Assembly (NCBI GenBank): GCA_009845425.1
Contig: VXZQ01000014.1
Location: 207,783 to 271,782 of the forward strand
Source of the DNA: Holophagales bacterium
Lineage (GTDB): Bacteria > Acidobacteriota > Thermoanaerobaculia > Multivoradales > Multivoraceae
Direction: 5' to 3'
DNA: 64,000 nucleotides
Shown here: positions 8,132-18,524 of the stretch, one piece after another
How positions within the stretch are numbered: position 1 is the stretch's first letter
Layout: the number at the start of each line of letters is the position of its first letter
Translations under genes and position numbers: made by a program
The notes under the pieces: model-generated
Seen by the model: only the letters and a program-made list of their open reading frames with translations
Database searches by the model: none
What the model was told of the DNA's origin: nothing

Positions 8132-8917
8132 ATGGACATCGAGAGCGCAGCACGGCGCGTCCGCGAAGACGGCTACACCGTCGAGCCGGACTTTCTGAGC
8201 GAGGAGACGCTGGAGCGGTTGCGCCGTGATCTCGCGCCCGTCTTCGAGGCGATCGGCAGCCGGATGACGGACGACTACGGCCAGCAGACGATCCATACGC
8301 ACAACCTGCTGGCCAAGACGCGGGCCGTCGACGAGCTGCTCATGGACGATCGTCTGCTGGGGCTGGTGGAGGCGGTGCTCGGCCCCGATTACCAGGTCTC
8401 CGGCGTCGCCGCGATGCGGCCCGGACCGGGAGACCGTCCCCAGCGGATGCACCAGGACGACGGCCACTATCCGCTTCCGCGCCCGCACGTTCCGCTGATC
8501 GCCAACACGCTGATCGCCCTCGATCCGTTCACGGTGGAGAACGGGGCCACGGAGATCGTTCCCGGCAGCCATCGCTCGGCCGATCCGGTCGATCCCGACG
8601 TGCCGACGTTGACGGTGGAGATGCCGGCCGGGGCGCTCTTCCTCTGGGACGGCGCCGTCTGGCACCGGGGCGGCGGCAACTCGACGCAGAGCGGGTATCG
8701 ACGCTCCCTCAACTTCAACTTCAACCTGGCGTGGCTCAAGCAGCGGGAGAACCAGTTCGTCGGCGTGCCGTGGGAAGTCGTGGTGGAAATGCCCGAGAAG
8801 CTGCAGGCGTTGATCGGTTACAAGCTGACCAACCGCGGTCTGGGCACGGTGGACTACCGCAACCCCATCGAGACCGTGAAGCGGCGGTTGGCGGAGACAA
8901 GGGGGATGAGCAGATGA
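8132..8917 (+). CDS. Phytanoyl-CoA dioxygenase (PhyH) family Fe(II)/2-oxoglutarate oxygenase
   Basis: PhyH-like HxD...H pattern (MHQDDGHY ... VWHRGGGN). Confidence 0.75.
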   Translation: MDIESAARRVREDGYTVEPDFLSEETLERLRRDLAPVFEAIGSRMTDDYGQQTIHTHNLLAKTRAVDELLMDDRLLGLVEAVLGPDYQVSGVAAMRPGPGDRPQRMHQDDGHYPLPRPHVPLIANTLIALDPFTVENGATEIVPGSHRSADPVDPDVPTLTVEMPAGALFLWDGAVWHRGGGNSTQSGYRRSLNFNFNLAWLKQRENQFVGVPWEVVVEMPEKLQALIGYKLTNRGLGTVDYRNPIETVKRRLAETRGMSR

Positions 8918-9381
8918 CAGCAGCATCCGCGACGGAAACCAGAGATAGCGAATCGAAGCCGCGGTCGGTGGTTGAGTCGGCCGTCGAAACGGCCCACAAG
9001 GTGGCGCTCGCCGGCGCCGGCGTAGCGGGCGAGGCGGCAGATGTGGGCGCCAAGGTCTTCGACCGGCTGGTCGCCCGCGGCGCGAAGGTCGAGAGCCAGG
9101 GCAGGGAGTCCCTGAGCGACTGGCGGGACAAGGCCGAGGAGAAGGTTCAGCAGGTGCGTTCCGCGGCCGAGAAGGGGATCGAACAGACCCGGGTCAAGGC
9201 GCGGACGGGAATCGACGAGCACCTGGAGCGCCGACTCGAGAAACTCGGCGTGCCCGGCCAGGCGGACCTGGAGGCCGTGATCGAACGGCTGAGCGCGATC
9301 GAGGCGCGGCTCGATGCGCTTGAGAAGCCGAAACCGCGGCGGCGGGCGGCGAAGAAGAAGACGCCCGCGAAGGCCGGGTAG
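8914..9381 (+). CDS. Polyhydroxyalkanoate granule-associated protein (phasin, PhaF-like) with Lys/Ala-rich histone-like tail
   Basis: LAGAGVAGEA...KVFDRLVARGAKVE...LGVPGQADLEAV...AKKKTPAKAG matches the phasin family pattern. ATGA start/stop overlap with the upstream gene. Confidence 0.75.
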   Translation: MTAASATETRDSESKPRSVVESAVETAHKVALAGAGVAGEAADVGAKVFDRLVARGAKVESQGRESLSDWRDKAEEKVQQVRSAAEKGIEQTRVKARTGIDEHLERRLEKLGVPGQADLEAVIERLSAIEARLDALEKPKPRRRAAKKKTPAKAG

Positions 9382-9417: not shown

Positions 9418-12102
9418 TTACGCCGCGCGGCGGCGGGTTCGTCGTTCGACCCGCACGGCGCGGAGGATCCGGCTCACCGTGGCCGGTCGGACACCTTCGC
9501 TGATGCGTTCCTCCGCCAGCTCGAAGGCGAGCTTCCACTGCTGCCGCAGGATCGCGTGAGCGGCGAGGAAGCCGTGGCGACGGTCGTACATGTGGGTGGC
9601 CTCGGAAGTCACGCCGTTCACTTCCAGCACACGGAGACCTTCGCCGCACTGGAGGGCCTCGGCGTTCGGAACGCGCACGTCGAAGCGGCCGAAGTCGAAC
9701 CCGTCGTAGGCGGTGCAGATCGCGTTCATCGCTCGTTCCAGTTCCGGGGTGTGCAGGTCGTTGGCGTCCAGGAAGATCGTCCCGCGCGAGTGGGCGCCGA
9801 CCTGGGTCAGCTCGACTCTCTCGCCGGCGGCAGGGACATGCGTCGCCGCTTCGGGATGCTCCCGCCGGTAGATGTGCGCGATGGCGACCGCGCGCGGGTC
9901 GTCCAGGATCAACCGCTCCAGCGTGCTGGTTCCGTCGCCGGTCACGGTGGGGCGGACCTTGTGGGTGATCGAGAAGACGTGCCCGTCGCGCCGGCCTGGG
10001 TGGCGGGCCCAGAACACGCCGTACTCCTCGCCCGCCATGTATTCCTGCGCGAGCGCGGGCCCGGGGGTCGCTGCGAAGAACGTCGCCGCTTCGGCCTCGG
10101 AGCGCGCGACGGCGACGCCGCGGCCGCGCTCGCCGGTGTCCGGCTTGAGCACGACCGGGTAGCCGAGGTTCTCGTCCTCCAGGAACCGGTCCAGGGCCGC
10201 GATGCGTTCCTCCGGGCCGCCGGTCGGCATGCGCCTCCAGGCCGGCAGCGCCTCGCCGATGCCGGCCAGGCCTTCGAGGATGTCGCTCTTCGACTCTCCG
10301 AACAGGCCGCCCAGGGGCATCGCGGGGTTGATCGCAGTGAACGCCGTCAGGTTGCCGCGCCGCAGGCCCCGCCACAGGATGTAGAGGGCGAGAGGCGGGT
10401 AGAACGCCCACATCGGCCAGAACTCCCAGTGCCGGATGCGTAGCAGACGGCCGCGCCAGAGGCGGCGGCCGCGCCAGGTGAACAGCGGCACGACGACGCC
10501 ACGTACGGTGAAGATGACGAGAGCCAGAGCCAGCACGGCGCCGAGAAGGCCCCCCGGCAGGCGGCCGCCGAAGCGTTCGACCGCCTCGCGTCCCAGGACC
10601 GCGTTGACGCCGACGAAGGCCGGGGTCCAGATCGCCACGGCGAGGGCGAAGTAGAAGCAGAAGCGGAGCAGGCTCGTGCGCAGGATGCCGGCGGCGAGGC
10701 AGGTCGGCAGCCGCGTTCCGGGCAGGAACCGGCTGACCAGGACGACGACCAGGGCCCGCCGGCGCAGCCACGCCGAGGCTTCTTCGAATCTGGCCTCGCT
10801 GACCCACCACTTGAAGGGTGGCAGCCTGAGAGCCGGGCGGCCCAGGACGCGCGCCAGCCAGGCGATGCCGAGGTCGCTGCTCAGGATGCCGACGTAGCAG
10901 GCGGCGACGGCGACCGGGAAGTCGAGCCGGCCCTGGGCCACGAGCAGGCCGGCGGTGATGCAGGTCAGGTCCTCGCTGGCGTACGCGGCGAACACGAGGA
11001 GCAGGAAGACGATCAGCAGGGCCGGCCCGGTGAACGGCGGCAGGTCCAGGTCGTCGAACGGCAGTGCCGCCCGTCGTAGCCGCTCCGATTCGGCGTCGGT
11101 GCGGGTCGGCGCCTCGCCGGCCTCGACCCGGCTCAGGAAGTCCTCGATACGGGCCGCCAGGTGCTCGCCGCCGCGGAACAGGAAGAAGTGGCTGTCCGGC
11201 CGCATCCACAGCTCGCTGTGCGGCACGATCCGGTGGTGCTCCCTTGCCGCGGCGGCCGGCACCAGCGGGTCCTGCGCGCCGTGGATGATGAACACCGGCG
11301 CTTCGAGGGACTCCAGGATGCCGCGCAGCGGCCGCTGGTCCGTGTCGTAGAAGTTGCGGGCGTAGGAGCGGGCGACGGCCATGTCGAGGGCGCCGAAGTG
11401 GGGGACCAGGTTGCGCACTCCCCAGAACAGGCCGAGCTGAAGGCCGTGCAGGCCGTGGTTGACCCGGTAGTCGCCGAGGAGCTCGAGTTCCTGGACGCCG
11501 ATCGAGGACATGAGGATGACGGAGGCCACTCGCTCGGGCGCCTCGTCGGCGAGATGCAGGGCGACCGCGCCGCCCATGCTGAAGCCGAGGACGTGGAACC
11601 GTTCGACGTCCAGTCGATCGAGCAGCTTGAGCGTCGAGTCGGCGTGACCGCGCGAGGAGTAGTCGGCCACTCGGTGGTCGGAGGCGCCGAACCCGGGGAG
11701 GTCGGGCGCGATGGTACGCCGCCGGAGAGCGTCGGAGACGCCGTTTGGTTGACTCGGGGAGGAGTAGTGCACGCTGGATTTGAGGCGGTGGAAGTTCTGG
11801 GAGCTGCCGGGCGACCCATGGAGGAGCACGAGGGGCAGCGACTCCGGGTTCGGTGAGTCGGTTTCATCCCATGCGATGCGCAGTGTGTCCTCTCCGTTCG
11901 GTGCAGGGATCTCCATCGTCGGCTTGAAGCTGAATGGGGAACGCACCAGTCTGAACTCGCCGTCCGGGGCGGGAAACTCGAGCAGAGTCATGGACGGGTG
12001 CTGCTCGCGGACGAATCGCACGACCGTCGAGACAAGAAGCAGCGCGCAGTAGGCGCCAACCGCGATGCGAAGCCAGCGGCGGCGCCACCTGGAAGTCGTC
12101 AT
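9418..12102 (-). CDS. Tri-domain membrane protein: alpha/beta hydrolase + DedA/SNARE-associated membrane domain + C-terminal ATP-grasp ligase domain
   Basis: LVLLHGSPGS / GFSMGG (hydrolase). VSRFLPGTRLPTCLAAGIL (DedA R-F/I-x-P-G-x-R motif). VVLKPDTGERGRGVAV ... EYMAGEEYGVF ... LEVNGVTS (ATP-grasp). 4-nt overlap with the upstream acyltransferase gene. Confidence 0.8.
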   Translation of the reverse strand: MTTSRWRRRWLRIAVGAYCALLLVSTVVRFVREQHPSMTLLEFPAPDGEFRLVRSPFSFKPTMEIPAPNGEDTLRIAWDETDSPNPESLPLVLLHGSPGSSQNFHRLKSSVHYSSPSQPNGVSDALRRRTIAPDLPGFGASDHRVADYSSRGHADSTLKLLDRLDVERFHVLGFSMGGAVALHLADEAPERVASVILMSSIGVQELELLGDYRVNHGLHGLQLGLFWGVRNLVPHFGALDMAVARSYARNFYDTDQRPLRGILESLEAPVFIIHGAQDPLVPAAAAREHHRIVPHSELWMRPDSHFFLFRGGEHLAARIEDFLSRVEAGEAPTRTDAESERLRRAALPFDDLDLPPFTGPALLIVFLLLVFAAYASEDLTCITAGLLVAQGRLDFPVAVAACYVGILSSDLGIAWLARVLGRPALRLPPFKWWVSEARFEEASAWLRRRALVVVLVSRFLPGTRLPTCLAAGILRTSLLRFCFYFALAVAIWTPAFVGVNAVLGREAVERFGGRLPGGLLGAVLALALVIFTVRGVVVPLFTWRGRRLWRGRLLRIRHWEFWPMWAFYPPLALYILWRGLRRGNLTAFTAINPAMPLGGLFGESKSDILEGLAGIGEALPAWRRMPTGGPEERIAALDRFLEDENLGYPVVLKPDTGERGRGVAVARSEAEAATFFAATPGPALAQEYMAGEEYGVFWARHPGRRDGHVFSITHKVRPTVTGDGTSTLERLILDDPRAVAIAHIYRREHPEAATHVPAAGERVELTQVGAHSRGTIFLDANDLHTPELERAMNAICTAYDGFDFGRFDVRVPNAEALQCGEGLRVLEVNGVTSEATHMYDRRHGFLAAHAILRQQWKLAFELAEERISEGVRPATVSRILRAVRVERRTRRRAA

Positions 12103-12938
12103 GGAAACCGGCGGTCGCGGGTCGCCGCGGCGGCTTCCTCACTCGAGACCATGGGCCGGAACGCGGCCGCCATCCGCTCCCGCAGCCGGCGGGCGAGTTC
12201 CTTGCGGTCCGGGTGCCGGAACTGTCCTTCTCCGAACTCGAGTTCGGTATCGATCCTGCGGAGCTTGAGCAGCTCGGGCGCGTGCGGCGTCAGCGGCATG
12301 TCGCCCCACCAGGCGACGCTCAGGAAGGCGGGATCCTCGTCATCCGGCGTCTCGTAGCGCACAACGGCCCAGTGGACGGGCAGTTGTCTGGCGGCGGCGG
12401 GCGCGAGCAGGGAGGGCTTCAGCGTCGCCACGGCGTCTCCCGGTGTCGAGGTGCCCTCTGGGAACAGGATGACCGGATCGCCCGCCTCCAGGGCCTCGGC
12501 GATCTGGTCGGCTACCCGGGTGACGTCACGGCGCCGGCCGCGGTCGACGAAGAGGATGTCGACCGTCCGGCACACGGTTCCGGCCAGGGGCCAGTCCGCG
12601 ATCTCGGCCTTGGAGACGAAGCGCGCCGGCGAGTGTGCGGCGAGAACCAGGATGTCGATGTAAGAGATGTGGTTCGAAACCAGCAGGCAGGGCGGCGCTG
12701 GCGGCGCACCCCGGACCGTGACCCGGCAGCCGAGCACGGCCAGGCACGCGCGGCCCCAGTGGCGCATGATGCCGGAGCGGACCTTCCGCCAGGTCGGGTA
12801 GCGGCGTGCGAGAAAGGGCTTCAGGACGAACAACGGCAGCCACGCGGCCAGAGTGAGCACGAGGAACGCCGGGCCCCGCCAGAACAGCCGCCACAGCCGC
12901 ACGAGGCGCCTGGGGAAGTGGAGGTTGAGGCCGGACAC
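12099..12938 (-). CDS. PlsC-family lysophospholipid acyltransferase (OlsA-like O-acyltransferase)
   Basis: HxxxxD motif region (LVSNHISYIDILVLA) and FPEGTS motif. ATGA overlap with the downstream fusion gene. Confidence 0.8.
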   Translation of the reverse strand: MSGLNLHFPRRLVRLWRLFWRGPAFLVLTLAAWLPLFVLKPFLARRYPTWRKVRSGIMRHWGRACLAVLGCRVTVRGAPPAPPCLLVSNHISYIDILVLAAHSPARFVSKAEIADWPLAGTVCRTVDILFVDRGRRRDVTRVADQIAEALEAGDPVILFPEGTSTPGDAVATLKPSLLAPAAARQLPVHWAVVRYETPDDEDPAFLSVAWWGDMPLTPHAPELLKLRRIDTELEFGEGQFRHPDRKELARRLRERMAAAFRPMVSSEEAAAATRDRRFP

Positions 12939-12963
12939 GGAGCCTGCGACGGGCCTGACGGTT

Positions 12964-13818
12964 CTACGTGGCAGCCGGCGGCGCCGTAGCGGCCGCCGGA
13001 GCCTGGTCGAGTCCGAAGATCAGCCGGATGCGCCGGCTGAGCGTGGCCGTGTCCATCAGCACCAGGTAGTCGATCGTCTTGAAGTCGCGGTCGATTGCCG
13101 GCCGGCTGCAGACGAGGGCGCCGTAGCGCAGGTAGGTTGCGAACAGGGGTGGTATCTCGACCTCCGGAACTCTCTCGACCGTCTCGGGCGGCGCCTCGCA
13201 GCGGGCGTGCTCGAGGACCGGTACGTCGAGGTCCGGCCGGACCTTGCCCGCCGCGACGAGCTGCCGGTAGAGCCGGATGCCGGCGGCCTGATCCTGGCTG
13301 GTCAGGGAGCAGCAGCCGAACAGGTAGCGGAGCCGGTTGTGGACCATGTAGCGGGCCAGGCCCTGCCAGAGCAGGAACAGAACGGTCCGCTTCCGGTGGC
13401 GGCGATGGATGCAGGCTCGGCCGATCTCGACCGACTGATCGAGCAGGCTGCTGGGCAGGGCGTCCAGGTCGTACTCGATGGCCGAGTAGAAGCCGCGGCC
13501 GCGGGCCGCCATGGCGGCCGTCTGCATCCGGTAGGTGCCGATCATCGTGCCGTCCGTCCGCTCGACCAGCATGTGGTGGCAACTCGCGTCGAAGTCGTCC
13601 GTGTCGCGGCCGGTGTCGTAGGACTCGTCGAGACCCTCGCCCAGCTCCAGGTTGAAGACCTCGAAGCGCAGGGTCAGCAGCCGGTCGATGTCCTCGGCGG
13701 TGCGCGCGAAGCGCAGGCGGTAGGGGCCGGCTCCGATTTGTCCGTCGGGCAGGTGTTCGGGGCTGGGGATACCCGGTGAGTCGGCGTTCCGGGAGAGGAA
13801 GCCGGCCGGATCGGTCAT
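12964..13818 (-). CDS. OlsB/GlsB-family GNAT N-acyltransferase (lyso-aminolipid / N-acyl amino acid synthase)
   Basis: YRLRFARTAEDIDRLLTLRFEVFNLELGEG...DxxDxxCHHMLV is characteristic of the OlsB-like family. Start at MTDPAGF (13818). Confidence 0.7.
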   Translation of the reverse strand: MTDPAGFLSRNADSPGIPSPEHLPDGQIGAGPYRLRFARTAEDIDRLLTLRFEVFNLELGEGLDESYDTGRDTDDFDASCHHMLVERTDGTMIGTYRMQTAAMAARGRGFYSAIEYDLDALPSSLLDQSVEIGRACIHRRHRKRTVLFLLWQGLARYMVHNRLRYLFGCCSLTSQDQAAGIRLYRQLVAAGKVRPDLDVPVLEHARCEAPPETVERVPEVEIPPLFATYLRYGALVCSRPAIDRDFKTIDYLVLMDTATLSRRIRLIFGLDQAPAAATAPPAAT

Positions 13819-14597
13819 GAGCGGGTCCCCGCCGCGGCGCGAATCGACTCGGCGCCGAAGATCACAAGAAACAGGCGGTCGTCTTCGTCGTGGAGCAGGC
13901 CGGTGACTTCGACAGGCTGGCCCACCCAGTCGAGCACTTCCGGGCCGACGGGTCGGCCGGAGGCGTGCATCAGATGGACCAGTTGCCGCTCTCCGCTCTT
14001 CGTTCTGACCAGGAGGGCCGCTGGAATGCCTCCGCGGATACAGAGGGAGGCGCAGTCTCGGTGAGGCTTGCCGCGGCCCGGCTTCATCGCGCCCAGGTAG
14101 CACTTCGTGTCGACGATTTCCCCTGTGAGGGTCTGGGCGTCTCCCGGAGAGTCGGGCGCTTCCGCGGCGCCACCTTCGCCGACCTGCTCCGAGAGTTCGA
14201 AGGAGTGCACTTCGAGCATTGCGGCCTCGGGATTCCGGATCAGCGTGCCTTCGAGATCGATCTTCCGTGAGGTGCCGGACTGCGACGGCAGGCCAGGAGC
14301 CGCGTCTACGTCGAGTCCATGCTTGCCGACAGCGACCAGAAGATACCCGTCGGCCGGTCCGTCCGCCGTGATCAGCCGGGGATTGGGATCGACGACCAGT
14401 TCGCCCGAGTAGTCGCGCACCGTGCCGTACTCGAACACTCCCTCGTCGAACCGTTCGAGGAGCAGGGCCAGGCAGAGGCCGATCGCCGCGGTCAGGGCGA
14501 CCAGCCCGATCGCCAGCCGGCGCGCGAACCGGCGGATTCCGGGCGGCGTCTCGTCGACGTAGCCGACGTAGAAGCCGTCGGGGCGGTCGCCAGTCAC
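13815..14597 (-). CDS. Hypothetical membrane-anchored protein
   Basis: N-terminal TM helix (LAIGLVALTAAIGLCLALLL). GTGA overlap with the upstream gene stop and ATGA-type overlap with the downstream OlsB-like start. Start inferred at GTG 14597. Confidence 0.5.
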   Translation of the reverse strand: MTGDRPDGFYVGYVDETPPGIRRFARRLAIGLVALTAAIGLCLALLLERFDEGVFEYGTVRDYSGELVVDPNPRLITADGPADGYLLVAVGKHGLDVDAAPGLPSQSGTSRKIDLEGTLIRNPEAAMLEVHSFELSEQVGEGGAAEAPDSPGDAQTLTGEIVDTKCYLGAMKPGRGKPHRDCASLCIRGGIPAALLVRTKSGERQLVHLMHASGRPVGPEVLDWVGQPVEVTGLLHDEDDRLFLVIFGAESIRAAAGTRS

Positions 14598-15664
14598 GAA
14601 GGCTCCCCGGCGCCGGTTGCGACGTCGAGCCGTGCCGGCTCGGCGTGAGTTCCGGGCGGATTGGGCCGCGGATCGATCAGCACGCGGCTCCCTTCTACAC
14701 GGACATTGAAGGTTGGGATCGTCTCGGTGAACGGCGGCGGCGAGCAGCCGTCCTCGGGACGGTACTGGTAACCATGCCACGGGCAGGTGATGCAGCCGTC
14801 GATGACCTGGCCTTCGCCCAGCGGGCCGTTCTGGTGCTGGCAGACGTTGGAGACGGCCGCGATCCGTTCGCCGCCGTCCGCGCGATAGCGGAACACGGCC
14901 ACCCGCTCACCGCTGAGGAGGAAGATGCGGGCCCGGTCGAGCGGGATGTCGGAGACGGCACAGACGTCGACCGTGGAGCCTTCCGCCGCGGCGGCCGGCA
15001 TCGGTGCGCGCTCGCGCCAGCCGGCGACGATGTGCAACGAGGCGATGCCGGCGAAGCCGATACCCAGCAGGACGGCGAGCACCGGCGGTCGCTCCGGGGC
15101 CTGCAGGCTGCCCAGCGCGACATGCACGAGGATCAGTCCGTACGCGACGTAGACCAGCATGTGGAGCGACTTCCAGACCGGCGCGGTCAGGTTCGCGAGC
15201 CAGAAGTCGTGCGAGGTCGCCGCCAGCAGGAACAGGATGGCGAGCGCCGCGAGGCCGAGCGCCTGAAACGGGAATTGGGTCAGGCTGTCGTAGTTCCCAT
15301 TGCTCGCCAGCACGCTGACGAGTGGATTCAGGACCCCGAGGCCGTGGAACTGGACGATCGAGAATCCGCCATGGGCGAGAGCCAGCAGAAACACGCAGAC
15401 GCCGAGGTGCCGGCGGTTGTAGAGCAGGGGCAGGAACCGCGTGTCCAGCCGGCAAAGCGGTCCGATGGCGAGCACGACGTGCAGCAGCAGCAGGGCGCCG
15501 GCGCCGAAACCGCGGATCAGCAGCGTTTCGAGCGTTGCCTGAGGTCGGGTCGCGACCCCGATGCCGACGAAGAGGCCGAGGAACACGAGGATGCCGGCCG
15601 CGATCGTCAGGTCGTAGAGCTTCTTGTTGCGGTTCCAGAGGACCGCCTGGTACTCGGCGCTCAC
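14594..15664 (-). CDS. Ferric-reductase-like transmembrane domain fused to Rieske [2Fe-2S] domain
   Basis: Six predicted TM helices with paired His (MsrQ/FRD-like). C-terminal CQH-x16-CPWH Rieske motif. GTG start. Confidence 0.75.
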   Translation of the reverse strand: MSAEYQAVLWNRNKKLYDLTIAAGILVFLGLFVGIGVATRPQATLETLLIRGFGAGALLLLHVVLAIGPLCRLDTRFLPLLYNRRHLGVCVFLLALAHGGFSIVQFHGLGVLNPLVSVLASNGNYDSLTQFPFQALGLAALAILFLLAATSHDFWLANLTAPVWKSLHMLVYVAYGLILVHVALGSLQAPERPPVLAVLLGIGFAGIASLHIVAGWRERAPMPAAAAEGSTVDVCAVSDIPLDRARIFLLSGERVAVFRYRADGGERIAAVSNVCQHQNGPLGEGQVIDGCITCPWHGYQYRPEDGCSPPPFTETIPTFNVRVEGSRVLIDPRPNPPGTHAEPARLDVATGAGEPS

Positions 15665-15818
15665 GGCTCGACGGCGTCCGCCGCGACCTCACGCGCTTCG
15701 GGCAGGGCGTCCACGAGCGGCGGCTCGGGACGAAGGAGAACCGCGATGGCGAGGAGGACCGCCAGGATGGGTGCCAACACCGTCCATACAAGGCGGTGAC
15801 GCTGCCGCAGGCCGCGGA

Positions 15819-16097
15819 TCACCCGGAGGCCTGCCTCGGTCGAGCGGCGACCGCATCGCGATGAGCGTTGCTCTCCGAGGGGGCCTGCCGGCCGGCAAGC
15901 CACCTTCGCAGAAGGACGGGCCAGAGCACAGCGACGCCGGGGAGGATGATGAGCCGGAAGCCCAGGCCGGTCGATCGTGCTGCGGGATCGATGTGGCCGA
16001 CCCCGCGCCAGGCGAAGAAGGGAGCGAAGGCCAGTCCGCAGGCGATGTACACGGTGCAGAGCAGCACGACGACCTCGGCGGCGCGCACGATGGACAT
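15819..16097 (-). CDS. Small membrane protein (uncertain frame; possible frameshift with overlapping ORF 15661-16194)
   Basis: Two hydrophobic helices (VVVLLCTVYIACGLAFAPFF; FRLIILPGVAVLWPVLL). The alternative frame ends with a TM helix and a GTGA coupling to the next gene. Confidence 0.3.
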   Translation of the reverse strand: MSIVRAAEVVVLLCTVYIACGLAFAPFFAWRGVGHIDPAARSTGLGFRLIILPGVAVLWPVLLRRWLAGRQAPSESNAHRDAVAARPRQASG

Positions 16098-16183
16098 CGC
16101 GGGGAGTATACGCGCGCCATGTGCCGAATCTGCCGTAGACTCCGACCGCTTCGACAAGCAACCAGGACCCGAGGGAAGAGAAC

Positions 16184-17317
16184 ATGCCGGTCATCCATCG
16201 TTCGAACGCGTCGACACTCTTCGGTGGTCCGGACTGGATCCTGCTCGCCTCTCTGTTGCTCGCGGCGGCGCTTCCTGCCGCCGGCCAGGAGATGACCGTG
16301 GAGGCCTACGAGCCGCGTTCGAGCCTCAAGGTGCCGGGCGGTCCGGTGACCCGAGCGAAGTTCCCCTTCGTCGACGCTCACGGCCACCTCCGTGCCAGGG
16401 ATCCGGCCCGGATCGACCAGATGGTCAAGGAGATGGACGAGATGAACATGGCCGTGTTCGTCAACCTGAGCGGCGGCTCGGGCGAGGGTCTCAAGGCGAA
16501 CCTCGCCGCGACGAAGGGCCGCTACCCGAACCGGTTCGTCGTCTACGCGAACGTCGACTTCTCCGGCATCGGCGAGGCTGGCTGGGGCGAGGCGGCCGCG
16601 GCGCAGCTCGAGGCGGACTTTCATGCCGGCGCGCAGGGGCTCAAGATCTACAAGAACCTCAGCATGTTCCAGACCGACGTCGACGGCAACCGGGTGGCGG
16701 CCGACGATCGGCGCATCGATCCGGTGTGGGCGATGGCGGGTGAGCTCGGCATCCCCGTCCTGATCCACGTCGGCGAGCCGTCGCCATTCTGGGACCCGTG
16801 GGACAAGCACAACGAGCGCTGGCTGGAACTCAAGCAGTTCCCGAACCGGCGGCGCGACGACGCGACCCGCTTCGCTCCGTTCGACCAGACGATGGAGGAG
16901 CAGCACAACCTGTTCCGCAATCACCCGAACACGACGTTCATCAACGCCCATCTCGGCTGGTTCGGCAACGACCTGGGACGGCTCGGCAAACTGCTCGACG
17001 AGCTACCCAACGTCTACACGGAACTCGGCGCGGTCCTGGCCGAACTCGGCCGGCAGCCGATCACGGGCGCCGCCTTCATGGAGAAGTACCAGGACCGCGT
17101 CCTGATGGGCAAGGACTCCTGGGATCCGATCTGGGGCTATCACGTGTACTTCCGCGTGCTGGAGACGCGGGACGAGTACTTCGACTACTACCGCAAACGC
17201 CACGCCCACTGGAAGATGTACGGGCTCGGCCTGTCGGACGAGGTACTCGAGAAGGTCTACTTCCGCAACGCGCTGAAGATCATCCCCGGCCTCGACCGGA
17301 GCCTCTTCCCGGAGTAG
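16184..17317 (+). CDS. Secreted amidohydrolase-2 family (TIM-barrel metal-dependent hydrolase)
   Basis: Signal peptide. FVDAHGHL metal-binding HxH motif. Length and pattern typical of PF04909-like enzymes. Confidence 0.75.
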   Translation: MPVIHRSNASTLFGGPDWILLASLLLAAALPAAGQEMTVEAYEPRSSLKVPGGPVTRAKFPFVDAHGHLRARDPARIDQMVKEMDEMNMAVFVNLSGGSGEGLKANLAATKGRYPNRFVVYANVDFSGIGEAGWGEAAAAQLEADFHAGAQGLKIYKNLSMFQTDVDGNRVAADDRRIDPVWAMAGELGIPVLIHVGEPSPFWDPWDKHNERWLELKQFPNRRRDDATRFAPFDQTMEEQHNLFRNHPNTTFINAHLGWFGNDLGRLGKLLDELPNVYTELGAVLAELGRQPITGAAFMEKYQDRVLMGKDSWDPIWGYHVYFRVLETRDEYFDYYRKRHAHWKMYGLGLSDEVLEKVYFRNALKIIPGLDRSLFPE

Positions 17318-17327
17318 GCCCGCTGCG

Positions 17328-18524
17328 TCAGGGCCCGGTCGCTTCGCTGCCCTCCATGGCTTCCGGCTCCGGCGAACCGGTGCAGTCGCCGCAGTGGACG
17401 TCGTCGACCGCTTCGCCGGCGGCGAGCGACGCCACCCAGTCGCGGATCTTCACGCCGTCCGACTCGTACGTGTAGAACTGGGGCCGCAGCATGATCGTGT
17501 GCAGCTCGCCCGCCGCGATGTAGCTCCGGTAGTTGTCCTGGCCCTCGAGCGCCGCGTCGATGTCGGCCTCGTTCGCGTCGAGCAGCGGCTGCAGACCGCC
17601 ACTGACATCGGTGCCGGCGATCTCCAGGAACTGGATCTGGACATCGTCCTCGGCGGTGTCGTAGCGCGTGAACATCGCCTCGGGATGGGCCTTGGCGGCC
17701 TGGATGTACAGCGCCTCGAACGAGAAGTTGTCGGTGTCGACCTCGTTCATGTTCTCGAAGTGCGAGAGAGCGGCCAGCGTTCCCCAGGACTCGTGCGGCC
17801 GGCCGTCGGAGAGGTTGCGGTAGCCGCCGGCGCCGTCGCCGAGGGCGGTCACGCGGGCGTCGGGGTAGTTCTCCGCGAAGTGGCGGGCGTAGACCGGCGA
17901 GGGGATCGAACCGGCGCTCGAACCGGTGATGAACACGGTCTCGGGACCCAGGAAGTGCTCGTAGGTCCAGTCGAGAGCCGTCCGGCCGTTCGTGTATCCG
18001 CGGTGGTGGATGGTGAACTCGCGCGCCGACGCATCCTCGGTGGCCGCCGCCTCGTAGACCGTGTCGCTGTCGCCGATGTGGACGTCGCCGGTGCAGTAGG
18101 GCACGAAGACGAAGCTGTGATCGGCGAACGGGTTGTCGGAGTGATTGAAGGCGACGATGCCGTGGGCCGCGCCTTCCTCGGGCTCCGTGCCGCTCGGAGA
18201 GCGCATCTCCTCGATCGCGGTCATCGTGTAGGTCGGCCGGCCCTGCGGGTCGCAGGTTTCGGCGGTCCAGCAGCCGCCCCCGCCCTGGAGGTAGAAGACG
18301 AGCTGGGTCGGATCGGCCTTGCGGACGAAGAACCGGAACGGCGAACCGTCGGAGCAGGTCGTGCGCCCGCCCGGCGTGATGGTGTTCCACCCTTCCGCGA
18401 GATCGGCGAGCGGCGCCTCGAGGTCGACGGGTTCGGGGGCTTCCTCGGCCGGCGCGCAGGCGAATGCGGCCAGCGCCAGGAGAGCGGCGGTCACGATGAG
18501 GGAGGTGGAGTGGCGGTTCTTCAT
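17328..18524 (-). CDS. Pectin acetylesterase (PAE/Notum-like) family lipoprotein
   Basis: FYLQGGGGCWTAETC ... FVPYCTGDVHIGD are PAE family hallmarks. N-terminal signal with Cys. Confidence 0.65.
   Translation of the reverse strand: MKNRHSTSLIVTAALLALAAFACAPAEEAPEPVDLEAPLADLAEGWNTITPGGRTTCSDGSPFRFFVRKADPTQLVFYLQGGGGCWTAETCDPQGRPTYTMTAIEEMRSPSGTEPEEGAAHGIVAFNHSDNPFADHSFVFVPYCTGDVHIGDSDTVYEAAATEDASAREFTIHHRGYTNGRTALDWTYEHFLGPETVFITGSSAGSIPSPVYARHFAENYPDARVTALGDGAGGYRNLSDGRPHESWGTLAALSHFENMNEVDTDNFSFEALYIQAAKAHPEAMFTRYDTAEDDVQIQFLEIAGTDVSGGLQPLLDANEADIDAALEGQDNYRSYIAAGELHTIMLRPQFYTYESDGVKIRDWVASLAAGEAVDDVHCGDCTGSPEPEAMEGSEATGP

Follow-up and report, generated by a model that had tools for sequence, protein, structure and literature searches.

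Aminolipids replace phospholipids under phosphorus limitation and shape antimicrobial-peptide resistance, phage attachment, and immune recognition (PMC11631085). The described route closest to the one considered here is the OlsB/OlsA ornithine-lipid pathway of S. meliloti, with its GluB and GlsB/GlsA variants. We analysed a stretch of 64,000 nucleotides from a Holophagales bacterium, a 'Ca. Multivorans'-like acidobacterium of the Thermoanaerobaculia (contig VXZQ01000014.1, positions 207,783 to 271,782), referred to below as the window, in which an operon on the minus strand contains a similar pair of neighbouring acyltransferases of the families PF13444 and PF01553. In this operon the pair, named D and E, stands with a large fusion protein, F, and with a four-gene redox module, A1-A2-B-C, a setting seen in no described ols locus (PMC11631085). 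A functional parallel to F is found in MprF/LpiA together with the periplasmic AcvB, where a cytoplasmic enzyme that modifies the head group, a domain that translocates the lipid, and a hydrolase by which the modification is reversed or limited are encoded together (PMC8131360, PMC13197417). F appears to bring together the same functional triad, a resemblance of function without homology, but it has an ATP-grasp domain instead of an aminoacyl-tRNA transferase and a DedA domain instead of the MprF flippase, and all of its parts lie in one polypeptide. For the redox module, proteins that join a ferric-reductase domain (FRD) to a Rieske domain have been catalogued, with the Rieske domain classed as an electron-transfer agent (PMC3591440). 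Our reading of the locus, to which we give an even chance, is that D and E would make an aminolipid, that F would tailor its head group, and that A1-A2-B-C would form a separate electron conduit.

The analysis supported a co-transcribed membrane-lipid operon centred on the OlsB-like/OlsA-like pair. The G+C content of the region was 69%. An earlier note, made from the letters of this DNA, had described six translationally coupled genes; its minus-strand open reading frames (ORFs) were found at the coordinates it gave, but its "small membrane protein" corresponded to two genes, since the 53-aa A2 had been missed. The operon thus contained seven genes with five 4-nt start/stop overlaps. Direct reading of the junctions showed GTGA at 15819-15822 (A1/A2), 15661-15664 (A2/B), and 14594-14597 (B/C), and ATGA at 13815-13818 (C/D) and 12099-12102 (E/F); the last four are the ones that had been noted earlier, and all were present. 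Only the D/E junction had no overlap, with 25 nt between the D stop (12964) and the E start (12938). The letters follow the operon order from its upstream end, all on the minus strand:

15819..16097, minus: A1, 92 aa, two predicted transmembrane (TM) helices, first gene of the operon (ORF, hydropathy)
15661..15822, minus: A2, 53-aa single-pass membrane protein (junction sequences, conservation)
14594..15664, minus: B, six-TM ferric-reductase domain (di-haem b) with a C-terminal ferredoxin-type Rieske [2Fe-2S] domain (profiles, motifs)
13815..14597, minus: C, 260 aa, N-terminal TM anchor and a predicted periplasmic domain of two barrels resembling the oligonucleotide/oligosaccharide-binding (OB) fold (model, motif)
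12964..13818, minus: D, OlsB-like GNAT-fold N-acyltransferase, 284 aa (PF13444, comparison with OlsB)
12099..12938, minus: E, OlsA-like (PlsC/LPLAT family) O-acyltransferase, 279 aa (PF01553, motifs)
11143..11850, minus: F domain 1 (about aa 85-320), alpha/beta-hydrolase (PF00561, conserved residues)
10483..11034, minus: F domain 2 (about aa 357-540), DedA/VTT membrane domain (PF09335, hydropathy, charge pattern)
9463..10425, minus: F domain 3 (about aa 560-880), putative membrane-anchored ATP-grasp ligase (fold and sequence comparison)

The acyltransferase pair and the three-domain protein F

Pfam searches showed that D matched PF13444 over the full length of the profile (positions 1-102 of 102, E 2.6e-28) and that E matched PF01553 (E 6e-21), both above the Pfam cut-offs. 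The top NCBIfam families of D were two OlsB models (130.2 bits against a cut-off of 350, and 127.6 against 320), and those of E were two OlsA models (140.9 and 134.7 bits, cut-off 300), with PlsC TIGR00530 trailing at 68 bits. D was 28% identical to S. meliloti OlsB, whose sequence (L081; loci are cited by such numbers) was recovered from a mislabelled replicon. It retained R51, F55, E58, D72, D74, D77, H82, GTYR94-97, E131, G133, R134, and W151, which are the residues invariant across S. meliloti OlsB, an actinobacterial OlsB-like protein, and the D orthologues; a loss of conserved OlsB residues, which the earlier note had named as evidence against its reading, was thus not seen. In E, the HX4D motif was NHISYID at residue 89 and FPEG stood at residue 159. 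A PDB sequence search with D gave no match. The claim of the earlier note that these two proteins form the canonical ornithine-lipid pathway was therefore kept in part: the OlsB/OlsA-type pair was recovered through PF13444 and PF01553, but because the scores of both proteins fell so far short of the equivalog models, D and E were rejected as OlsB and OlsA proper with ornithine lipid as the product. D and E are best placed as proteins of the OlsB/OlsA kind to which ornithine specificity is not assignable, and their head-group amino acid was left unassigned because the scores were far under the ornithine-lipid equivalog cut-offs.

Profile searches resolved the 894 aa of F into an alpha/beta-hydrolase domain, a VTT/DedA domain, and a region matching ATP-grasp models weakly, in this order from the N-terminus. 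Profile searches or comparisons of folds recovered each of the domains proposed earlier for the operon proteins. Ahead of the hydrolase domain, which matched PF00561 with E 4e-29 and 102 bits, lay a hydrophobic helix at the N-terminus (aa 13-31). Alignment of 12 homologues showed that Ser175, in the nucleophile elbow GFSMG, Asp278, and His305 were invariant; by their position in the sequence, these residues are assigned as the putative catalytic triad. The sequence relatives of this domain in the PDB included the polyhydroxybutyrate (PHB) depolymerase 8ynv and the membrane phospholipase entry 6i8w, which we take to be P. aeruginosa PlaF. The DedA domain matched PF09335 (E 1.5e-12, 48.5 bits against a gathering cut-off of 33.9). 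Like the DedA transporters, it was thus a VTT domain above the Pfam cut-off with a weak likeness to the undecaprenyl-phosphate transporter UptA, but it scored only 52 bits against the cut-off of 250 of the UptA model and was placed inside an enzyme fusion.

A PDB profile search with full-length F was dominated by hydrolases, and the C-terminal 350 aa were analysed on their own. The C-terminal domain had an ATP-grasp fold closest to those of carboxylate-amine ligases, namely LysX/ArgX, RimK, cyanophycin synthetases, and Ddl. Its structural neighbours included L-amino-acid ligases and cyanophycin synthetase 2 as well, and the best PDB sequence match was a cyanophycin synthetase. All of these ATP-grasp relatives join an amine to a carboxylate through an acyl-phosphate. 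K653 (in LKPD) and E827/N829 (in EVNG) were invariant across two homologue alignments, one of them that of the 12 homologues, and by analogy they would bind ATP and Mg, respectively. No curated Pfam or NCBIfam family reached its cut-off for this domain (RimK 16.3 bits against 21, cyanophycin synthetase 37.8 against 850, LysX 18.6 against 275.6), and no characterised member of the F family was found. In addition to falling below all cut-offs, the domain differed from RimK, LysX/ArgX, and cyanophycin synthetase in its DedA fusions and in a hydrophobic helix with the motif FTAxNPAxxxGGxxGESK, which preceded the ATP-grasp core in every family member read, including the stand-alone ones. Because this helix is kept in all of them, the ATP-grasp domain is predicted to be membrane-anchored throughout the family, and mainly for this reason a substrate in the lipid phase is argued for F. 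Pfam and NCBIfam searches found no aminoacyl-tRNA-dependent transferase and no MprF flippase domain in F or in the other operon genes.

Distribution and gene neighbourhoods of the F family

Relatives of the full fusion were found in at least 588 species genomes in a scan with one genome per species. The closest of them were metagenome-assembled genomes of Thermoanaerobaculia and 'Ca. Multivorans', with 65-93% identity; no literature on 'Ca. Multivorans' was found. The ATP-grasp family itself comprised 1,674 clusters at 50% identity (E<=1e-30, profile search of 1.84 billion representatives), and the representatives fell into three length classes of about 350-430, 520-620, and 850-900 aa, which correspond to the ATP-grasp domain alone, with DedA, and with both DedA and the hydrolase, respectively. 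Annotated records showed the stand-alone form in Komagataeibacter, Paracoccus, and Variovorax and the DedA fusion in Azospirillum. In Paracoccus, a separate hydrolase, 31% identical to the hydrolase domain of F, directly followed the ATP-grasp gene. Since this homologous hydrolase lies beside the ATP-grasp gene as a separate protein, the pairing of hydrolase and ligase appears to predate the fusion.

Conservation of the gene order was examined by tblastn of the seven window proteins against 80 fetched loci with flanks up to 10 kb. The full gene order was kept in all 24 close relatives that had enough flank, and A2 was found by tblastn in 22 of them. Because the order holds in 24/24 close relatives, the arrangement exceeds chance. 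D or E lay within the fetched flank of F in the same 24 loci and in 36 of 40 distant ones, which spanned Blastocatellia, other Acidobacteriota, Gemmatimonadota, Planctomycetota, and Calditrichaceae. In some of the distant loci the genes were shuffled (for example, E-...-F-D in L065 and L077). The synteny that had been named as a check thus held for the D/E/F neighbourhood across phyla, and because D or E adjoins F across phyla despite the varied gene order, F probably works with D and E. In most of the distant loci, a DinB_2-like gene (28/40) and a TANGO2/NRDE-like gene starting with Met-Cys (16/40) stood between E and F; examples are found in L026 (8722-9968), L044 (9348-9884), and L084 (10759-12014).

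The same partners were found with a different aminolipid synthase in Vibrio aquimaris (L090, NZ_CP045351.1, 4334-10026), where seven genes formed one run on the same strand. This run encoded a DedA protein of 199 aa, an ATP-grasp protein of 376 aa with 33.5% identity to F, a DinB-like protein with 30% identity to its acidobacterial counterpart, a TANGO2-like protein (34%), a YHS (seleno)protein, a 152-aa protein without known identity, and an OlsF-like bifunctional aminolipid synthase (PF19576 and PF13444). The partner set therefore persists with a non-orthologous aminolipid synthase in another phylum. The OlsF-like protein reached 424 of the 620 bits required by the OlsF model and matched the glycine-lipid GlsB/GlsA models too; to judge from these matches, its product may be an aminolipid other than ornithine lipid. 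In Variovorax (L085), the stand-alone ATP-grasp gene was directly upstream of a PF13444 gene.

Several of these neighbourhoods contained further genes. A PF14518 "iron-containing redox enzyme" (haem-oxygenase-like) was near the ATP-grasp gene in Variovorax (L085, 2770-7878) and Komagataeibacter (L087, 4044-6981), and the Variovorax run also held methyltransferase and HupE/UreJ-like genes. In L083 (1-2672), a gene for a Rieske-thiamine-pyrophosphate (TPP) enzyme and one for a pyridoxal-phosphate (PLP)-dependent decarboxylase immediately preceded the D homologue, with translational coupling. The latter enzyme was closest to the diaminobutyrate/aspartate decarboxylase models and may be dedicated to providing an amine head group. 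In 13 loci (L029, 12572-13228, and other Blastocatellia), the F gene was followed, in the same orientation, by one for a protein of about 235 aa that carries the HExxH-like motif AHELGH; it may be a further accessory gene of the Blastocatellia lineage.

The redox block and the borders of the operon

The profile of B showed a six-TM ferric-reductase domain (PF01794, E 2.3e-12, 47 bits against a cut-off of 28) followed by a Rieske domain (PF00355, E 1.3e-14). Both histidine pairs that a di-haem ferric-reductase domain should have (His86/His98 and His168/His181) were present, and the Rieske ligands CQH...CPWH were intact. Weak NCBIfam matches were obtained with MsrQ (6e-11, 42 bits against 130) and with Rieske ferredoxins of the NirD/AndAb/HcaC type. 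The architecture corresponded to the FRD+Rieske type already catalogued as "M4". Counts of positive residues placed the N-terminus and the Rieske domain of B in the cytoplasm and the soluble domain of C outside, as a prediction. C matched no family in Pfam or NCBIfam and had no similarity to a hydroxylase or desaturase, and all named ones among its 242 homologues were hypothetical proteins. They shared the invariant motif GEIVD[TS]KC...MKPGRGKPHRxCAxLCIRGG, which contains Cys166, His179, Cys182, and Cys186. The structure model of C consisted of a TM helix and two OB-like barrels, for which no specific structural relative was found. Like MsrQ (YedZ) and other members of the FRD superfamily, B has six TM helices with two histidine pairs and is predicted to pass electrons to a periplasmic partner; unlike MsrQ, which works with the molybdoenzyme MsrP, it is paired with the family-less Cys3-His protein C, to which it is sometimes fused, and is accompanied by the two small membrane proteins A1 and A2. 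B and C formed a single ORF of 639 aa in L043, and a shared reading frame and the ORF lengths indicated such a fusion in L059, L073, and L078.

Neither A1 nor A2 matched a family in Pfam or NCBIfam. Homologues of A1 with 88-89 aa stood at the same position in the distant loci L078, L083, and L084. The start of A1 is most likely the ATG at 16097 and not the TTG at 16157 from which the gene had been read earlier, because the resulting 92 aa fit these homologues better. The A2 motif MIRxLRRRHR-TM-LLRPEPP was also seen in L084 (43% identity) and at the N-terminus of an L083 protein (38%). Because distant metagenomic loci have the motif in the same place, A2 is a genuine gene.

The block A1-A2-B-C stood beside D, E, or F in L043, L059, L062, L066, L073, L078, L080, L083, and L084. 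Its placement varied: it was upstream in this operon, upstream together with DinB and TANGO2 in L084, inverted in L066, and downstream in L083, where it was followed by MsrB (SelR). On a plasmid of R. leguminosarum (NZ_CP007050.1, L089, 5624-8074), the block stood alone with an extra 69-aa ORF, and its proteins were 48% (B), 31% (C), and 31% (A1, a 71-aa protein) identical to those of the window. The neighbours there were a TetR gene, an ECF sigma factor gene, a DUF1109/NrsF-type anti-sigma gene, and a chlorite-dismutase-family gene, a setting which may mean that the block serves redox or stress reactions of the envelope independently of aminolipids. Because it stands alone on Rhizobium plasmids, A1-A2-B-C would be an autonomous transmembrane electron-transfer unit whose tie to the lipid genes is one of neighbourhood.

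The operon is limited by 9418 and 16097, because convergent genes lie downstream and a divergent amidohydrolase gene lies upstream. The adjoining features were as follows:

16098..16183, no strand assigned: divergent intergenic region of 86 bp between A1 and the plus-strand amidohydrolase, presumed promoter region (ORF map)
16184-17317, plus: Amidohydro_2 amidohydrolase, divergent, 86 bp upstream of A1 (ORF map)
17328-18524, minus: pectinacetylesterase-family (PAE) gene beyond the amidohydrolase
8731-9381, plus: phasin, convergent, downstream of the operon (ORF map)
8132-8917, plus: PhyH-family Fe(II)/2-oxoglutarate dioxygenase, convergent, downstream of the operon (ORF map)

A scan for promoter and terminator consensus sequences gave no signal above shuffled sequences, and no sigma-70-like site was found in the 86-bp region by this consensus, which is uninformative for this phylum. 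The PhyH and phasin ORFs as listed overlap by about 190 nt, and one of the starts is probably wrong. A homologue of dioxygenase size held the downstream position among close relatives only. The PhyH protein was considered as a lipid hydroxylase and dropped, given that its gene is convergent and keeps its position among close relatives only.

Proposed pathway, alternatives, and significance

The operon was assembled from three separable modules, D+E, F, and A1-A2-B-C. In the pathway that we propose, D would attach a (3-hydroxy)acyl chain to the nitrogen of an amino acid, and E would esterify a second chain to give a phosphorus-free aminolipid, as in the OlsB/OlsA two-step route. The ATP-grasp domain of F would then activate a carboxylate as an acyl-phosphate, likeliest the free head-group carboxyl of the (lyso-)aminolipid, and join it through an amide bond to ammonia, an amine, or an amino acid. 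The DedA domain would shift the lipid between the leaflets, and the hydrolase domain would undo the modification or cleave an ester-linked chain. This would follow the logic of synthase, flippase, and hydrolase of MprF/LpiA with AcvB, but driven by ATP and not by aminoacyl-tRNA. In the redox block, electrons would pass from the cytoplasmic Rieske 2Fe-2S cluster through the two membrane b haems to the periplasmic Cys3-His OB-fold protein. F most likely attaches an amine or an amino acid to the head group of the aminolipid. The analysis shows the identities of the domains, their fusions and folds, the conservation of catalytic residues, and the synteny, and the substrates, the order of steps, the product, and the side of the hydrolase are our inference. 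That the ATP-grasp domain adds an extra amino acid had been suggested in the earlier note, and the suggestion agrees with the carboxylate-amine-ligase folds, the membrane helix, and the two types of aminolipid synthase found nearby. To our knowledge, the genes for several aminolipid head-group modifications, among them amide-linked extensions such as that of taurine-ornithine lipid, are still unassigned.

Several observations weigh against this pathway. D and E missed the NCBIfam OlsB/OlsA equivalog cut-offs by far, and the ATP-grasp fold is silent on which carboxylate is activated, which could belong to the head group, to a free fatty acid, or to a free amino acid. Counts of positive residues over 115 homologues gave two self-consistent topologies of F: a periplasmic hydrolase is favoured by the strongly positive N-terminus before the first helix, and a cytoplasmic one by the Azospirillum DedA-ATP-grasp protein, in which a positive N-terminus stands directly before the first DedA helix, and also by the signal-less Paracoccus hydrolase. 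No aminolipid gene was found nearby in Azospirillum, Komagataeibacter, Paracoccus, and four of the 40 distant loci. The DinB-like and TANGO2-like genes were absent from this operon, from the whole 64-kb window, and from the 24 close relatives, so that the pathway here may be different from that of most relatives. Against a tie of the redox block to the lipid stand the Rhizobium plasmids, where the four genes occurred without lipid genes. In the searchable literature, no paper linking aminolipids, OlsB, or OlsF with ATP-grasp, DedA, DinB, or TANGO2 was found, and a 2024 review of aminolipids names no such enzyme (PMC11631085).

Other functions of F were weighed on the same evidence. The hydrolase might remove a chain and the ATP-grasp domain might activate a free fatty acid as an acyl-phosphate for re-acylation or N-acylation, so that the aminolipid would be remodelled in a Lands-type cycle of deacylation and re-acylation. 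ATP-grasp enzymes are able to join ATP to the carboxylate of a fatty acid, an example being the acyl-histidines of Legionella, and PlsY uses acyl-phosphate (PMC11631085); acyl esters are the substrates of PHB depolymerases and of a membrane phospholipase, which the F hydrolase resembles, and ATP-grasp and hydrolase are coupled even without OlsB nearby. We consider this unlikely, however, as the closest folds and sequences are ligases of amino-acid or peptide carboxylates and not known fatty-acid kinases, and both acylation steps are already covered by D and E. It is quite unlikely that the ATP-grasp domain acts before D and makes the head group itself, as a dipeptide or an unusual amino acid/amine conjugate, with the DedA and hydrolase domains serving export or turnover. 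A ligase of soluble substrates has no obvious need for a conserved membrane helix or a DedA fusion, although the domain has L-amino-acid ligases, Ddl, and cyanophycin synthetase 2 as structural neighbours and the decarboxylase gene coupled upstream of D in L083 suggests a dedicated head-group supply. The synthesis of N-acetylglutaminylglutamine amide pairs a GNAT acetyltransferase with an ATP-grasp dipeptide ligase; the match of F to that ligase family was very weak (E 0.0055).

F might instead be a general protein of envelope-lipid homeostasis or transport whose substrate is a different lipid, for example phosphatidylglycerol or undecaprenyl phosphate, and which is co-regulated with aminolipid synthesis when the membrane is remodelled. 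The sole curated similarity of the DedA domain is to UptA, and the family members of Azospirillum, Komagataeibacter, and Paracoccus have no adjacent aminolipid genes, both of which would fit such a role. Such a role is nevertheless very unlikely, because the association with an aminolipid synthase outlasts the shuffling of gene order across phyla and the replacement of OlsB/OlsA by an OlsF-like protein, which regulation in common would hardly bring about by itself. The earlier note had also proposed that the Rieske protein hydroxylates or desaturates the lipid. That B does so, possibly with C, seems highly improbable: the block does stand beside D, E, and F in several lineages and orientations, it is translationally coupled to D here, and the invariant Cys3-His motif of C could hold a metal centre, but the Rieske domain of B is of the ferredoxin/NirD type, the stretch after TM6, the last TM helix, is just 143 residues long, and searches of B in Pfam and NCBIfam found no catalytic (mononuclear-iron) domain of an oxygenase. 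C is unlike any hydroxylase or desaturase, and the settings in Rhizobium (ECF sigma/anti-sigma and chlorite-dismutase-family genes) and in L083 (MsrB) point to envelope redox stress or repair. With no catalytic domain, a ferredoxin-type Rieske domain, and a block that occurs without lipid genes, the role of B as a Rieske oxygenase was rejected.

Returning to the tailoring of an aminolipid head group by F, the core of the operon is of a known kind, the OlsB/OlsA type of aminolipid synthesis, and the tailoring protein and the redox unit are uncharacterised. The gene combination, found from Acidobacteria to Vibrio, probably marks an undescribed modification of a lipid head group. A broader and more doubtful possibility, which we hold tentatively, is that the F family with its DedA, DinB-like, and TANGO2-like partners would be a widespread and undescribed ATP-dependent, tRNA-independent system that extends or amidates the head groups of OlsB/OlsF-type lipids and moves the product across the membrane, yielding a lipid class that lacks an assigned gene, for example lipids with amide-linked amine or dipeptide head groups like the taurine-ornithine lipids of acetic acid bacteria; in this lineage it would also be wired to a new transmembrane electron conduit (FRD-Rieske and the Cys3-His OB-fold protein) that modifies the lipid by redox chemistry or protects it in the periplasm. 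The redox module of four genes, with its family-less Cys3-His protein, is now defined and poses a question separate from that of the lipid. The value of the locus lies in a gene set that crosses phyla and in its culturable carriers. For head-group modification, the membrane-anchored ATP-grasp family is a testable candidate, which travels with two unrelated architectures of aminolipid synthase from Acidobacteriota to Vibrionaceae. Because culturable or named carriers exist (Vibrio aquimaris, Saltatorellus ferox, Acidobacteria bacterium Mor1, and strains of Variovorax, Paracoccus, Azospirillum, and Komagataeibacter), the question of what this family contributes to the membrane lipids is open to genetics and lipidomics.

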